This document shows, piece by piece, positions 17,831 through 36,127 of a DNA stretch of 64,000 nucleotides. The notes under the pieces are model-generated. The model saw nothing but the letters and a program-made list of their open reading frames with translations, ran no database searches and was not told where the DNA came from. The position numbers and the translations under genes were made by a program. How positions within the stretch are numbered: position 1 is the first letter of the stretch; each line of letters opens with the position of its first letter. This stretch comes from a phage: the NCBI GenBank assembly GCA_016389475.1, contig GCA_016389475.1_3042.1. The stretch is one strand, 5' to 3'.

Positions 17831-18799
17831 TTATTTCAGTAAAGTAACTTCCGAGATTTCTTCCCAACCATCTTTATCAGTTGAAATAAAATCTGCTACA
17901 TAAAGAGCCGTACGTAATGATACATTGCGAAGACGAGATACGTTAGCCTTCATCCAGGACAATGCTTTATACGTTTCTGCATCCGTCAGACCACGTTTCT
18001 GCATCATGTCAGTAGATAATATTACATCTTCAACTCGAACCATAATCTCTTCATTAGAGTGTACTCCAAGGTCGAGATACACTGAACGAGATACTAAAGC
18101 TTGAAGGTGTGGAGCAAGTTTCGAACCCCGTTCTAACTCTTTATCGATATCAACGTTTGTAATGAAAACGATAGTACCTTCAAACTCAAATTCTTTATCA
18201 ATACCCTTATCCTCGAGATAAGATGACGCAGTGCTCCAACAAACTTTGCGTTTATCTCCGGTATCTAATGCTGCTTTAAGAAGGTTCAGGATGTCCATAT
18301 CTGAGAATACGTCAACGTCATCGATTAAGAGAACGCTGTCTTCATCACGGTTGAGCCAAAGTTGTTCGTAAAGGCCAATACCAGAGATTTTACCATTAAT
18401 GCTTTTGTATTTGATGAAACCGTTATCATTAGCATTATTAAGTGCTTTATCCAGAGAATACGTTTTACCAATACCTGCTGCTCCCGAGATAATTAATGAA
18501 CGAATGTTTCCGTTAATAATACCATTCGTCATCATTCCCATAACATTAAATCTTTTATTAATGCGGGTTTTCATATCTTCATACGATTCTTTAACTTCTT
18601 CAACTTTTACACCATCATATGAAATGTCTGATTTGTAAACCCAAACACCGCGACGCTTACCGTCAATTTCAACAAAAACTTTACCATCTCCTTGTGCATC
18701 TACCGGAGCATTATCTGGGAACCATTCACCTAAGAGCTCAAAAGTTCCAGAGATTTCTTTACCGAAGTAGATACCCTTATTGATAGTTACAGTTTTCAT
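17831..18799 (-). CDS. P-loop NTPase (AAA-like) with ~115 aa N-terminal extension
   Basis: Walker A GAAGIGKT and Walker B VLLIDDVD; track start is TTG, ATG at 18799 with GGAG upstream. Confidence 0.65.
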   Translation of the reverse strand: MKTVTINKGIYFGKEISGTFELLGEWFPDNAPVDAQGDGKVFVEIDGKRRGVWVYKSDISYDGVKVEEVKESYEDMKTRINKRFNVMGMMTNGIINGNIRSLIISGAAGIGKTYSLDKALNNANDNGFIKYKSINGKISGIGLYEQLWLNRDEDSVLLIDDVDVFSDMDILNLLKAALDTGDKRKVCWSTASSYLEDKGIDKEFEFEGTIVFITNVDIDKELERGSKLAPHLQALVSRSVYLDLGVHSNEEIMVRVEDVILSTDMMQKRGLTDAETYKALSWMKANVSRLRNVSLRTALYVADFISTDKDGWEEISEVTLLK

Positions 18800-18832
18800 T
18801 TTATTCTCCAAATCCGTATCAGTTGATAGTTG

Positions 18833-18863
18833 TATAGTACCATAAAGCTTTATGCTTGTAAAC
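18833..18863 (-). promoter_or_regulatory. early (sigma70-type) promoter for the P-loop NTPase gene
   Basis: Minus strand GTTTAC (18863-18858), -10 TACTATA (18839-18833); perfect 14-bp palindrome cataaagctttatg (18841-18854) in the spacer. Confidence 0.5.
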
Positions 18864-18893
18864 CGTTTTGTGAAAAATTTTTGAAATAAAAAA

Positions 18894-18911
18894 GGGAGCC
18901 CGAAGGCTCCC
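18894..18911 (-). terminator. intrinsic terminator after the nucleotidyltransferase gene
   Basis: Minus RNA GGGAGCC-UUCG-GGCUCCC followed by UUUUUUAUUUC; 3 nt after the stop. Confidence 0.7.
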
Positions 18912-18913
18912 TA

Positions 18914-19927
18914 TCATTTATAATAACTTCGGTGGTTTTCAAGATAGACCTTCTCAAGGAAGTCATCCCAGAAACCCATGTCTACTTTTTGCTGCATACC
19001 GTTCTTAGAAGCTTCAGTAGATGCTGCTTCTACTTGATCGACCACATCTTCCAAAAACTCTTGAACTGTTTTAAATGGATGTTTACCCAACTTCACGTCG
19101 AGAATAAATGGAGCATCTTGGAGTGGATAAACCAAGTCACCAGTTTTGTAAATTTCCAATAGTTGGAGTCCACCACGACAAGCATGACTCAGAGCTTTCC
19201 AGTCAATGCCTTCATTAGCTTCGGCTTTACGAGCACGTTCACCATATTCAGCATCTAATTTATTCAGTGACTGCTTAAGCTCAATAAGAGAAAGTGTTGT
19301 CTGATATTTACGACCCAACACAGTGTAGAACGTTTGCGGGCCTGTTTTCTCGTGATTATGGAACACCCATTCACAGAATTCGTTTTCTGGAAGACGATGC
19401 TTAATATCTTCAACTTTAGTGCGACGCTGCTTAATAGAACCATCTTCTTGGTAATCAACCCATTGCTCGGGGATTTGATTAACTACTTTCAATACATCAC
19501 GTAATGCAGCCAAACGAGAACCCTTGACACCGTATTTAGAAGCTTGCTTGCGAACATATCCTAAATAGGATTTCATGTTAGTCGTATAAAAACGAGAACG
19601 GTTGTCTTGAATAAACTTCCACACATCAGGCAAATCAGATTTAACCACTAGTTCAGGTGGAGTGTGAAGCATATCCAATGCTACAGTTTCACCATCTGCT
19701 GCTAATTTAAAGAAATATTTAAGACTGTATAGTTCATGGTCAATATCATCTTTAGTGTTTTTAGATGATGTGTTGTTAGTGTTTTTACTCATGTGCTCTT
19801 TGACATTTCCGATAAGAATATCACGAGCAGGAGGAACAAAAATTTCTTTAAAATCTACATCAGATTCTGGGGTAGAAGTTCCATAAAGATGACTACCAAA
19901 ATAGCTTTTCATTACTGTTTTCATCAT
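18914..19927 (-). CDS. Pol-beta-superfamily nucleotidyltransferase-like protein (337 aa)
   Basis: N-terminal motif YFGSHLYGTSTPESDVDF (GS-x10-DxD) followed by a helical domain. Confidence 0.6.
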   Translation of the reverse strand: MMKTVMKSYFGSHLYGTSTPESDVDFKEIFVPPARDILIGNVKEHMSKNTNNTSSKNTKDDIDHELYSLKYFFKLAADGETVALDMLHTPPELVVKSDLPDVWKFIQDNRSRFYTTNMKSYLGYVRKQASKYGVKGSRLAALRDVLKVVNQIPEQWVDYQEDGSIKQRRTKVEDIKHRLPENEFCEWVFHNHEKTGPQTFYTVLGRKYQTTLSLIELKQSLNKLDAEYGERARKAEANEGIDWKALSHACRGGLQLLEIYKTGDLVYPLQDAPFILDVKLGKHPFKTVQEFLEDVVDQVEAASTEASKNGMQQKVDMGFWDDFLEKVYLENHRSYYK

Positions 19928-20385
19928 TCAGCCTTATATTCAATAACAGGACATACTTTAGCTTTACGAGCTTTTAAAAATTCAACGATAATCGATTTCT
20001 TGGGTTGAATAGGAGGTAAACCTTTATACGCCCTATCAATATTTTCTACGTGTAAAGCATAATCCTTTTTCCATTTATAATCTTTATATTTTTCACGCAA
20101 ATGTGCAGGAATAACAAATGAACCGATAATAAGTAAAACAACCAAAAGCGCAAGTATAAATGCTGATGGAAGCAAAGTCCATAAACTACCAAAAATAAGC
20201 CAACGCTGTAGGCTTTCTGCACAAATAATTGTTAGCCCTACGAGTATAGCACATCCAAAAATAGAAACGAAAAATGTAGGAATGGCAATAGACCAAAAAT
20301 ATGCGCATAGTGTCTTAGGTCGTTGCCATTCATCGTTAAACAATTTGAATAATTTATAGTGCCAAGAGTTTTCATTAATAATCAT
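19924..20385 (-). CDS. membrane protein (153 aa)
   Basis: Three or more hydrophobic helices; stop overlaps the nucleotidyltransferase start (ATGA). Confidence 0.55.
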   Translation of the reverse strand: MIINENSWHYKLFKLFNDEWQRPKTLCAYFWSIAIPTFFVSIFGCAILVGLTIICAESLQRWLIFGSLWTLLPSAFILALLVVLLIIGSFVIPAHLREKYKDYKWKKDYALHVENIDRAYKGLPPIQPKKSIIVEFLKARKAKVCPVIEYKAE

Positions 20386-20387
20386 AA

Positions 20388-20909
20388 TTATCCTTTCATT
20401 GAAGGCGTAACGGTTGTTAAATACTTAATCATAGCTTCAGCTTCTGATTTTGACAATGAAATTTCTTCATTGTTTTGACGAATAGAAATAAAATCCGGAT
20501 GACGGTCACCACCAGCTTTTAAAACACACATATAAGTATCAACTTCATCTTCAATATTTGAAATGATTGAAGCAGTTCCACATGAATGCGGTTTTTGATA
20601 AATCAATGCAGCTTTTCTTCCGCCATTTGACTGTTCATAAACTTTTAATACATCAAACAAATCACTTCTTTTATCAATAGCTAAAATGTTATTTTCATCT
20701 TCAATGTTAAATCCTTCGGATACTTCATAAAGTGTCACCCATAAATCGCCAATATCAATAACAGCATTTACTTTTCCATGACTTTCAAGAGCATGACAAA
20801 TTTTCTTGATTTCGTCATAACTCATTTTAATAATATCATCTCCTTGACTAAGAAAGATGTCATTTTTAAATTCAACACGAATTAAACCGCTTCCACTTGA
20901 AATAAACAT
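20388..20909 (-). CDS. hypothetical protein (173 aa), paralog-like to the next ORF
   Basis: Shares GFNIE and a C-terminal YL-x2-V-x-P-x-M tail with 20916-21449. Confidence 0.55.
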   Translation of the reverse strand: MFISSGSGLIRVEFKNDIFLSQGDDIIKMSYDEIKKICHALESHGKVNAVIDIGDLWVTLYEVSEGFNIEDENNILAIDKRSDLFDVLKVYEQSNGGRKAALIYQKPHSCGTASIISNIEDEVDTYMCVLKAGGDRHPDFISIRQNNEEISLSKSEAEAMIKYLTTVTPSMKG

Positions 20910-20915
20910 ATTTCC

Positions 20916-21449
20916 TCACTTTGAAATCATAGTTGGAATAACAGAATCAAGATAAGTCTTTAGTGCAATAGTTTCGTCTTTGGTAAATGTGACAATATGT
21001 GCTCGAAAATCATCAATTTGACGAATAGTTAAGACATCTCCATCTTCATAACATTTTGATACGTTTAAAACAGTTTCATCATTCTGATTGCAAGCGTTAG
21101 TAATAATAGCATTGCAATTTTTAAACCATTTTAAACTATGTTTTCTTTCATTAGAATAATAAAAATATTTAATCTTATCTATAAAACTATCCCAATGGAT
21201 AACTGATAAGCATATTGACTCGCTTTCAATATTAAATCCTGGGCATGAAGAATAAAAATGAATTTTATGCTCATCATTAATGCTTATAATTTTATCAGTA
21301 TAAGGATTTTCAATTTTGGTTAAATGAATGATTTCACTAGGCGTAAAATACAGCATATCGTCTTCTTGTGTCAAACGATACATATTATTTACTTTTTCTA
21401 TAGCCAATTCACCAAAAAGTGAACTAACTTCTAATACTAATCGTTTCAT
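20916..21449 (-). CDS. hypothetical protein (177 aa), paralog-like to the previous ORF
   Basis: Track start is GTG; ATG at 21449; ends ...LKTYLDSVIPTMISK. Confidence 0.55.
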   Translation of the reverse strand: MKRLVLEVSSLFGELAIEKVNNMYRLTQEDDMLYFTPSEIIHLTKIENPYTDKIISINDEHKIHFYSSCPGFNIESESICLSVIHWDSFIDKIKYFYYSNERKHSLKWFKNCNAIITNACNQNDETVLNVSKCYEDGDVLTIRQIDDFRAHIVTFTKDETIALKTYLDSVIPTMISK

Positions 21450-21475
21450 ATTGATTCTCTTCGACTCGCTCACAA

Positions 21476-21580
21476 TTACATACTCCTTTGAATAATATCA
21501 ATAATGTTGTTCACCAGATTATAGGTAAACAAAGGATAATTATATTGAATCATCACATACACAACAAACAAAATTTTCAT
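21476..21580 (-). CDS. hypothetical hydrophobic peptide (34 aa)
   Basis: ATG 21580 preceded by GAGGAG and early promoter 21607-21638; MKILFVVYVMIQYNYPLF... Confidence 0.3.
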   Translation of the reverse strand: MKILFVVYVMIQYNYPLFTYNLVNNIIDIIQRSM

Positions 21581-21606
21581 TCTCTTCTCCTCAGTAGTTG
21601 ACAAGA

Positions 21607-21638
21607 TTACTATACCATAACCTTGCCAACTTGTAAAC
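21607..21638 (-). promoter_or_regulatory. early (sigma70-type) promoter
   Basis: Minus strand GTTTAC (21638-21633), spacer, TATAGTAA; followed by CTACTGAGGAGAAGAGA leader and ATG 21580. Confidence 0.5.
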
Positions 21639-21640
21639 CA

Positions 21641-21814
21641 TTAAATGGCGTTTTCAATAAAATTCTGAAGCTTTGTGTGAGCATCAACCATGATTTTCAT
21701 TTCTTCTTTGGCGAAAGCTGTACCTCTTTCCCGAGAAGAACATTCATAGTCAGAAACTGCATTAGCATATTCTTCGATTAGTTTCATTAAAAACATCTGT
21801 TTTTCAGTTTTCAT
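21641..21814 (-). CDS. hypothetical small protein (57 aa, below the track threshold)
   Basis: ATG 21814; MKTEKQMFLMKLIEEYANAVSDYECSS... Confidence 0.35.
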   Translation of the reverse strand: MKTEKQMFLMKLIEEYANAVSDYECSSRERGTAFAKEEMKIMVDAHTKLQNFIENAI

Positions 21815-22465: not shown

Positions 22466-22483
22466 AGTCTCCCGAAGGAGACT
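22466..22483 (-). terminator. intrinsic terminator after ORF 22488-22874
   Basis: Minus RNA AGUCUCC-UUCG-GGAGACU followed by UUUUUCAUUUU. Confidence 0.65.
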
Positions 22484-35106: not shown

Positions 35107-35182
35107 TGGTCGAGGCAGTAGGGATCGAACCTACGACCCAGGACTTAGAAGGTCCTTGCTCTTCCTTCTGAGCTATGCCCCG
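35107..35182 (-). tRNA. tRNA-Arg (anticodon UCU)
   Basis: Manual cloverleaf: acceptor CGGGGCA/UGCCUCG, anticodon loop CU-UCU-AA, T-arm GUAGG-UUCGAUC-CCUAC, CCA encoded. Confidence 0.7.
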
Positions 35183-35186
35183 TAAT

Positions 35187-35262
35187 TGGGGTGACCGATG
35201 GGAGTCGAACCCATGACTACGAGAATCACAATCTCGAGTTCTACCAACTGAACTACGGCCAC
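35187..35262 (-). tRNA. tRNA-His-like (anticodon GUG)
   Basis: Acceptor GUGGCCG/CGGUCAC, loop UU-GUG-AU, discriminator C, CCA encoded; position -1 is U, not G. Confidence 0.6.
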
Positions 35263-35376
35263 ATTAATACCTACTCCAACAATCATGATGTCTTCACACG
35301 AAATTAAGAGAAGAGTGATCAGTTCAACCCCTATAATCGCGTCAAGTAGATATTAATGTGACAGTTGTCACAAATT

Positions 35377-35451
35377 TGGCGGACGTGATAGGATTCGAAC
35401 CTATAACCAATCGCTTAACAGGCGATCGCTCTGCCATTGAGCTACACATCC
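35377..35451 (-). tRNA. tRNA-Asn (anticodon GUU)
   Basis: Acceptor GGAUGUG/CACGUCC, loop CU-GUU-AA, T-loop UUCGAAU. Confidence 0.65.
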
Positions 35452-35455
35452 AAAT

Positions 35456-35542
35456 TGGTGGGGAGTGATGGAGTCGAACCACCCGAGTCGCAATGACAAT
35501 GAATTTACAGTCCACACCGCTACCTCTACGGGATAACTCCCC
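35456..35542 (-). tRNA. tRNA-Tyr (anticodon GUA), long-variable-arm type
   Basis: 87 nt; acceptor GGGGAGU/ACUCCCC, loop CU-GUA-AA, variable-arm hairpin GUCAUUGCGAC. Confidence 0.6.
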
Positions 35543-35554
35543 TAATTCATAATT

Positions 35555-35629
35555 TGGTGGCCCTGGGTGGAATTGAACCACCATCTGGCGATTATGAGTC
35601 GCTTGCTTGAACCTTCCAGCTACAGGGCC
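35555..35629 (-). tRNA. tRNA with CAU anticodon (Met, or Ile if lysidine-modified as in T4)
   Basis: Acceptor GGCCCUG/CAGGGCC, loop CU-CAU-AA, T-arm GGUGG-UUCAAUU-CCACC. Confidence 0.6.
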
Positions 35630-35630
35630 T

Positions 35631-35706
35631 TGGTGCTGATTGACGGAATCGAACCGCCGACATCCTCATTACAAGTGAGGTGCTCTACCTACTGAGCTAA
35701 ATCAGC
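35631..35706 (-). tRNA. tRNA-Thr (anticodon UGU)
   Basis: Acceptor GCUGAUU/AAUCAGC, loop CU-UGU-AA. Confidence 0.7.
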
Positions 35707-35711
35707 AAAAC

Positions 35712-35801
35712 TGGCGGAGGCGATAGGATTCGAACCTATGAGTCGCCGGAGCGACTGCCGGTTTTCAAGACCGGTGCATTCAACCACTCTGCCACGCCTC
35801 C
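35712..35801 (-). tRNA. tRNA-Ser (anticodon UGA), long-variable-arm type
   Basis: 90 nt; acceptor GGAGGCG/CGCCUCC, loop CU-UGA-AA. Confidence 0.7.
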
Positions 35802-35803
35802 AG

Positions 35804-35877
35804 TCTCCATACAAGGATTTGAACCTTGGACCTCCTGATCCCAAATCAGGCGCTCTACCAAACTGAGCTACACGGAG
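35804..35877 (-). tRNA. tRNA-Pro (anticodon UGG)
   Basis: Acceptor CUCCGUG/UAUGGAG, loop UU-UGG-GA; 3' CCA not encoded. Confidence 0.7.
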
Positions 35878-35887
35878 TAAATTAAAT

Positions 35888-35961
<74 letters not shown>

Positions 35962-35966
35962 AAATT

Positions 35967-36053
35967 TGGTGCGAGAAGTGGGACTCGAACCCACAAGGAA
36001 ATCATTCCGCAGCATTTTAAGTGCTGTGCCTTTACCAATTTGACCATTCTCGC
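35967..36053 (-). tRNA. tRNA-Leu (anticodon UAA), long-variable-arm type
   Basis: 87 nt; acceptor GCGAGAA/UUCUCGC, loop CU-UAA-AA. Confidence 0.7.
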
Positions 36054-36054
36054 G

Positions 36055-36127
36055 CTGGGAATAAAGGATTCGAACCTTTGCATCCTGGAATCAAAATCCA
36101 GTGCCTTACCAACTTGGCTAATTCCCA
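36055..36127 (-). tRNA. tRNA-Gln (anticodon UUG)
   Basis: Acceptor UGGGAAU/AUUCCCA, loop UU-UUG-AU; CCA not encoded. Confidence 0.7.

Follow-up and report, generated by a model that had tools for sequence, protein, structure and literature searches.

The gene considered here, nrdC.11, closes an early operon on the minus strand of a 64,000-nucleotide stretch of phage DNA (contig GCA_016389475.1_3042.1 of assembly GCA_016389475.1), the whole of which we call the window. Its closest described counterparts are NrdC.11 of phage T4 (UniProt P39242) and the T2 ortholog, which represent the same gene, likewise lying between mobD.1 and nrdC.10 and served by the same promoter and terminator. At the family level, NrdC.11 resembles the RlaP proteins (Pfam PF10127) in its N-terminal Pol-beta core with GS, SDxD and a third Asp. 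A helical C-terminal domain is predicted to follow, and some full-length relatives lie in RNA-repair contexts. A December 2025 preprint (PMC12776372) reported that two members of this family, PfRlaP and PaRlaP from Pseudomonas fluorescens and P. aeruginosa, add one or two nucleoside monophosphates, or deoxynucleoside monophosphates, to the 3′-OH of RNA. Both enzymes prefer Mn2+, are inactive on DNA and protein, favour the 5′ half of a cleaved transfer RNA (tRNA) mimic, and partly rescue the aminoacylation of a tRNA lacking one anticodon-loop nucleotide (PMC12776372). In the crystal structure of PfRlaP, an N-terminal nucleotidyltransferase (NTase) domain is followed by a C-terminal helical domain whose last helix packs back on the NTase (PMC12776372). 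In its PF10127 similarity network, the same preprint assigns T4 NrdC.11 to cluster 5.

Two further systems are useful for comparison. In T4 tRNA repair, Pnkp (pseT) and Rnl1 (gene 63) act against PrrC, healing and sealing the tRNA cleaved by the host as a form of phage counter-defence (Amitsur et al. 1987, as cited in PMC12776372). Phage RlaPs have been predicted to restore the nucleotides removed by RloC ahead of ligation, and such gap filling has already been proposed in the literature (Burroughs and Aravind 2016, as cited in PMC7824862 and PMC12776372). Hailong HalB (PDB 9dbh), in turn, is a host defence NTase that makes oligodeoxyadenylate, in a reaction described as tyrosine-primed and template-independent, and has a large channel partner, whereas the membrane open reading frame (ORF) that precedes nrdC.11 in the window is small and dispensable for the retention of nrdC.11.

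Judging from its sequence and its structural model, NrdC.11 of the window has the Pol-beta fold and the intact active site of a nucleotidyltransferase, and it is assigned by sequence to the RlaP family. By analogy with the two assayed Pseudomonas enzymes, on which the proposed activity is based, we infer its substrate (RNA 3′ ends), its in vivo target, and a counter-defence role, and we consider it probable that NrdC.11 adds nucleotides to RNA 3′ ends for the repair of RNA, most likely tRNA, thereby countering host anticodon nucleases. The gene and its family assignment have already been published, and the window adds no new gene or family.

NrdC.11 as an RlaP-family nucleotidyltransferase

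The original prediction, made from the letters of the window, regarded the enzyme as not explained by any core phage function. This view did not survive comparison with public records. NrdC.11 of the window shares 100% identity with the representative sequence of a T2-named protein cluster and, by tblastn, 98% with T4 nrdC.11, and the T4/T2-type protein is labelled "nucleotidyltransferase" in RefSeq. PHROG 388, which bears the same name, matches it over its full length, and its orthologs were matched to COG3541 "nucleotidyltransferase" as early as 2006 (PMC1524935). With PF10127 it scores 44.2 bits (E 2.5e-11), above the gathering threshold of 23 bits, and precomputed matches to PF10127 are present on all of its close relatives. 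It was also thought that a match to a characterised enzyme with a housekeeping role would count against the prediction; a characterised match was indeed found at the family level, but RlaP is not a housekeeping enzyme. Public records also contain errors derived from the gene name: many phage entries call NrdC.11 "thioredoxin", and one calls it a "putative HNH homing endonuclease".

An exhaustive search for relatives of NrdC.11 yielded 3424 clusters at the 50% level, 829 of them with E ≤ 1e-30. In an alignment of 81 diverse full-length relatives (34–55% identity), the invariant positions are G11, S12, S22, D23, D25, N57, D63, Y132, K244, H248, R251, P268, and K279. The N-terminal GS-x10-DVD motif that had been read from the sequence corresponds to F10-G11-S12, ten residues, and D23-V24-D25. 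The third catalytic acid, which structure prediction was expected to locate, is D63 (I62-D63-H64), on the neighbouring strand 62–68. Among the 77 cellular homologs aligned at G11, S12, D23, D25, and D63, 76 retain these residues, with Ala in place of S12 in 19.

Based on the 81-sequence alignment, AlphaFold2 gave a model of NrdC.11 with a predicted local distance difference test score (pLDDT) of 94.3 and a predicted template modelling score (pTM) of 0.83. The modelled core consists of strand 3–10, helix 12–15, strand 24–31 starting at D23-x-D25, and strand 62–68 with D63, so that the GS...DxD region shows the strand, helix, strand order expected of a Pol-beta NTase core, as had been anticipated. 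After the NTase core, helices 214–336 form the C-terminal helical domain that the original prediction had also described, and this domain carries a DWKAxSHAxR motif that contains the invariant K244, H248, and R251.

Structure comparison recognises an alpha/beta NTase fold in the model, and a Foldseek search of the PDB returned weak NTase matches alone (E ~1e-2). No RlaP structure was detected in the PDB copies searched, either by sequence, using NrdC.11, its 81-sequence profile, or a profile of canonical RlaPs, or by fold. An hhalign comparison with canonical RlaPs places GS on GS, SDVD on SDYD, and D63 on their invariant Asp.

Gene neighbourhoods in cells and phages

A scan of cellular genomes gave 80 loci (L082–L161) with full-length NrdC.11-type genes, 32–54% identical to NrdC.11. 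RlaP itself is the commonest neighbour family at these loci. A canonical RlaP of about 260 to 290 amino acids lies directly downstream, on the same strand, in 22 of the 72 evaluable loci, and the catalytic residues are intact both in the long forms and in their canonical partners. Pnkp occurs in 6 of the 80 loci and Hen1 in 7; for instance, the gene order of an Asticcacaulis operon at L131:1088-7277 is Hen1, Pnkp, NrdC.11-type gene, canonical RlaP, and Macro. Thus, NrdC.11-type genes are often found beside canonical RlaP and sometimes inside Hen1-Pnkp RNA-repair operons, and this is the modest addition of the present analysis.

Our phage census comprised 81 loci, 78 from a viral-contig scan and three from annotated reference regions. 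On viral contig L080 (6001-9179), an NrdC.11-type gene is followed immediately by an RNA ligase (PF09414) and then by a PNKP with kinase and HAD phosphatase domains, while on L081 (4862-6906), a ligase of the Rnl1 family lies directly upstream of the NrdC.11-type gene. Among 34 divergent phage loci, there is no dominant partner, with one RNA ligase, one PNKP, three HD, and three ProQ_C-like neighbours, and this census rules out a strict linkage of RlaP to ligase in phages. No canonical RlaP was found in T-even phages, but such proteins are present in jumbo phages of Pseudomonas, Caulobacter, Brevundimonas, and Burkholderia.

A functional coupling of the NTase to the membrane protein, as proposed in the original prediction, is not conserved in these loci. 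A homolog of the membrane ORF lies upstream of nrdC.11 in around 31 phage loci, and nrdC.10 lies downstream in 33, both genes accompanying nrdC.11 mainly in Tevenvirinae-like genomes of 62% identity or more; only two or three weaker cases depart from this pattern. The spacing varies among relatives, and in phages with an NrdC.11 that is 64–70% identical, the membrane ORF homolog is mostly 0.4–1.2 kb further upstream. T4 has no membrane ORF; its nrdC.11 is preserved next to mobD, which encodes an HNH homing endonuclease, instead of the second y05I-family paralog and the membrane ORF. No homologs of y05I, the membrane ORF, or nrdC.10 were found beside the 80 cellular loci, nor were y05I or membrane ORF homologs found beside phage homologs with less than 60% identity, except for one short membrane-ORF match near L045. 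Shared descent within Tevenvirinae accounts for the synteny of these genes, and we conclude that the other four operon genes are variable accessory genes on a common transcript and not parts of one machine.

The operon and its other genes

By sequence, the window belongs to a Tequatrovirus, that is, a T2/T4-like phage. The 2.9 kb around the operon show 96.6–97.8% DNA identity to the best-matching Tequatrovirus genomes (for example, Yersinia phage fPS-2, AR1, RB14, and RB32), and 722 phage records match the operon region in a nucleotide comparison. The matching records annotate the genes as mobD.2, mobD.1, a mobD.1-like ORF (RB32ORF097c), a membrane ORF (RB32ORF096c), and nrdC.11, with mobD.3 to mobD.5, rI.-1, rI, and tk upstream of the operon and nrdC.10 downstream. 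The region is the early transcription unit of a T2/T4-like Tequatrovirus that runs from mobD.2 through mobD.1, the mobD.1 paralog, and the membrane ORF to nrdC.11. Its five tightly packed genes lie on the minus strand between one early promoter and one strong terminator, and all of the elements listed in the original prediction are found where they had been placed on this strand:

21609..21637, minus strand: T4-type early promoter (sigma-70, extended -10), GTTTACA, 17 nt, TGgTATAGT; from promoter scan and conservation
21476..21580, minus strand: mobD.2, ORF of 34 amino acids with a GAGGAG ribosome-binding site (PHROG 3515, E 2.4e-21; annotated mobD.2 in T4 and RB14)
20916..21473, minus strand: mobD.1 (y05I), 185 amino acids from a GTG start (Pfam T4_y05I_N E 4.6e-38, T4_y05I_C E 2e-19; PHROG 1502; annotated mobD.1)
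20388..20909, minus strand: second y05I-family paralog, 173 amino acids, RB32ORF097c type (T4_y05I_N E 2.4e-34, T4_y05I_C E 8.7e-23)
19924..20385, minus strand: membrane ORF of 153 amino acids, RB32ORF096c type (hydropathy scan; PHROG 944 "membrane protein", E 3.8e-50)
18914..19927, minus strand: nrdC.11, predicted RlaP-family Pol-beta nucleotidyltransferase of 337 amino acids, or 336 from the second ATG, as annotated
18893..18912, minus strand: intrinsic terminator with an 8-bp stem, UUCG loop, and U6 tail (folding compared with shuffles)
18834..18862, minus strand: second early-type promoter, for nrdC.10, TTTACA, 17 nt, TACTAT, with TG (promoter scan)
17831..18811, minus strand: nrdC.10 (annotated in AR1, T4, and RB14)

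The early promoter proposed at 21607-21638 was recovered at 21637-21609, where it scores 10 of 12, tied best in the 17.7–23.5 kb interval and the sole 10/12 site with an upstream TG. Given that promoter-like matches are no commoner in the scan than in shuffles (26 compared with 24.3 expected), the call rests on conservation and intergenic position and not on the scan itself; the site is nearly base-for-base identical in T4, AR1, and RB14. At the other end, the terminator at 18912-18893 has six G-C pairs in its stem and a minimum free energy of -17.7 kcal/mol, with a z-score of -4.05 and none of 200 shuffles as stable, in agreement with the strong terminator predicted after the nucleotidyltransferase gene. 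nrdC.10 has its own early-type promoter directly after this terminator, and the operon boundaries are therefore those given by the original prediction. An Rfam scan of the window found no RNA family within the operon. A second UUCG-loop terminator (AGTCTCC-TTCG-GGAGACT, then a T run) lies at 22466-22483 on the minus strand, just downstream of rI.-1, and divides the rI unit from the mobD.5-mobD.2a genes. As for the timing of expression, T4 omics data (PMC9697503 supplement) class nrdC.11 as early at the RNA level and middle at the protein level, and they class mobD.1 and mobD as early at both levels; for the RNA of the T4 ortholog, this agrees with the early expression that had been proposed.

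The 34-residue peptide described as hydrophobic does correspond to an ORF, MobD.2, but the description was overstated, as the hydrophobicity of the peptide is mild (Kyte-Doolittle peak 1.38), with a weakly hydrophobic N-terminus. For mobD.1, public records use downstream in-frame start codons, giving, for example, 177 amino acids in AR1. The suggestion that two of the proteins are paralogs was borne out: they are 29% identical (BLASTP E 2e-10), both contain the GFNIE and YLxxVxPxM motifs, and both carry T4_y05I_N and T4_y05I_C above the Pfam cutoffs of 24.9 and 27 bits, with 118.4 and 80.9 bits in one and 130.3 and 70.2 bits in the other. Pfam describes MobD.1 (y05I) as a putative transcription factor. 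In public records for the region matching 18800-21700, MobD.1, MobD.4, and MobD.5 are mislabelled [quoted passage not shown].

The second paralog is absent from T4. The present phage, like RB14, RB32, and AR1, carries this paralog and the membrane ORF in the place taken by mobD in T4, and the RB14 annotation notes describe the paralog as "similar to mobD.1" and the membrane ORF, which fills the slot of the homing endonuclease gene, as "replaces mobD". In a hydropathy scan, the membrane ORF shows hydrophobic blocks at residues 25–60 and 62–98, followed by a basic C-terminal tail, and its TGA stop overlaps the ATG of nrdC.11 as ATGA, just as the original prediction had read it. Its relatives form only 23 protein clusters; the source-named ones all come from T4-like phage or E. 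coli records, and the remainder are from metagenomes. The length of this ORF varies among close relatives, with cluster representatives of 85 to 161 amino acids and a T2-named one of 135, which suggests frequent truncation or alternative starts. NCBIfam and PADLOC gave no matches for the four larger operon proteins or for NrdC.10. The product of nrdC.10 is a P-loop, AAA-like protein of 326 amino acids with weak Pfam matches to AAA_22, AAA_16, and nSTAND, and it belongs to PHROG 1250.

The window also contains 11 tRNA genes at 35107-36127 on the minus strand, for Arg, His, Asn, Tyr, Met, Thr, Ser, Pro, Gly, Leu, and Gln, and no tRNA-Lys, the target of PrrC, is found in this cluster. T4 has eight tRNA genes, and the present phage may therefore carry an expanded set relative to T4.

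A proposed role in RNA repair and its alternatives

In the repair role that we favour, NrdC.11 would extend the 3′-OH of a broken RNA by one or two nucleotides in a template-independent manner. This addition would restore the nucleotide cut from the anticodon loop of a cleaved tRNA by a host nuclease such as RloC. A functional tRNA could then be resealed by T4 polynucleotide kinase/phosphatase and RNA ligase 1, whose genes lie in other parts of the genome. Compared with the known T4 tRNA repair, NrdC.11, whose gene is unlinked to pseT or gene 63, would provide an upstream gap-filling step, needed only when the nuclease, like RloC, also excises a nucleotide. The possibility of a counter-defence enzyme had been raised in the original prediction, and it is now the leading hypothesis, being consistent with a gene that is early and dispensable and with relatives that occur in RNA-repair contexts. 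nrdC.11 is non-essential and dispensable in the laboratory, as the nrdC.11-mobD.3 block of T4 has been lost in viable genome-reduced phages (PMC9825161).

Several observations weigh against this role. The PF10127 match, in which residues 7–135 of NrdC.11 correspond to positions 23–142 of the 249 in the model, covers the N-terminal NTase core alone, and the hhalign alignment with canonical RlaPs spans only residues 2–91, leaving the C-terminal halves, including the modelled helical domain, unaligned. NrdC.11 is around 70 residues longer than canonical RlaPs, with a beta-rich insert at about residues 150–213 that has no alignment with them, and it falls in network cluster 5 and not in cluster 1a (PMC12776372). 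The biochemistry of the family comes from one preprint, not peer reviewed, in which T4 NrdC.11 is called an "RlaP of unknown function" (PMC12776372). Furthermore, RNA-repair genes lie within 6 kb of the NrdC.11-type gene in only 3 of the 81 phage loci, and in T-even phages nrdC.11 adjoins mobD.1, the membrane ORF, and nrdC.10, with no RNA ligase or kinase. Finally, the long form in cells often occurs alongside canonical RlaP and not in its place, and given that T-even phages lack this frequent partner, the long form alone may act differently.

This last point leads to a related proposal, which we regard as unlikely, namely that the long RlaPs, with their beta-rich insert and DWKAxSHAxR motif, are a functionally distinct subfamily paired with canonical RlaP in the Pnkp/Hen1 repair operons of cells, and that the long form carried alone by T-even phages may have another activity, such as a specific, perhaps tRNA-guided, restoration of anticodon nucleotides or a HalB-like synthesis of oligonucleotide decoys against host defence. 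A somewhat stronger candidate, albeit still an unlikely one, is that NrdC.11 does modify the 3′ ends of RNA, though in the service of host takeover, tailing or blocking host tRNAs or messenger RNAs for decay or altered translation. The assayed RlaPs label E. coli RNAs of the sizes of ribosomal RNA, tRNA, and fragments with any nucleoside triphosphate (PMC12776372), and nrdC.11 is expressed early and, in T-even phages, has no link to ligase or kinase genes, all of which would fit such tailing. However, full-length relatives are found in Hen1-Pnkp operons and, in viral contigs, beside RNA ligase and PNKP, and laboratory dispensability fits a conditional counter-defence better than a general takeover. 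A target other than RNA, with NrdC.11 nucleotidylating a protein or a small molecule in the manner of MNT antitoxins or aminoglycoside nucleotidyltransferases, had been among the possibilities named in the original prediction; it is the least probable of the alternatives, as the corresponding matches are weaker than the match to HalB and reflect the common minimal NTase fold, the assayed RlaPs left E. coli proteins unlabelled (PMC12776372), and the genomic context of the relatives is one of RNA repair.

Two explanations would give the membrane ORF a part in the function of NrdC.11, and we consider both of them very improbable. One holds that the five genes form a single functional module, in which the y05I regulators, the membrane protein, and the NTase act together. 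The single promoter and terminator, the tight spacing, the ATGA overlap, and the recurrence of a membrane ORF homolog upstream of nrdC.11 would all be expected of such a module, but T4 keeps nrdC.11 after exchanging the second paralog and the membrane ORF for a homing endonuclease, the spacing is variable, the partners are absent beside the cellular homologs and, except for the short match near L045, beside phage homologs under 60% identity, and Tevenvirinae ancestry accounts for the synteny. The other, to which we give marginally less credence, is that NrdC.11 resembles HalB in function, as a primer-independent or protein-primed synthase of short oligonucleotides, for example oligo-dA, that serve as a signal or decoy, for instance by keeping a HalA-type channel closed, possibly with the membrane ORF. 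HalB may rank first in structure comparison by default, since no RlaP structure is detectable in the PDB copies searched; its identity to NrdC.11 is 16%, and there is no sequence-level PDB match. Neither NrdC.11 nor the membrane ORF has a meaningful match to a PADLOC model, T4 retains nrdC.11 without the membrane ORF, and the latter is a protein of 153 amino acids whose named relatives all come from T4-like phage or E. coli records, with no detectable link to HalA.

If the repair role that we consider probable is correct, NrdC.11 would join Pnkp and Rnl1 as a third component of the classic counter-defence that T4 mounts through tRNA repair, and its activity would account for how T-even phages might survive "repair-proof" anticodon nucleases, RloC among them.

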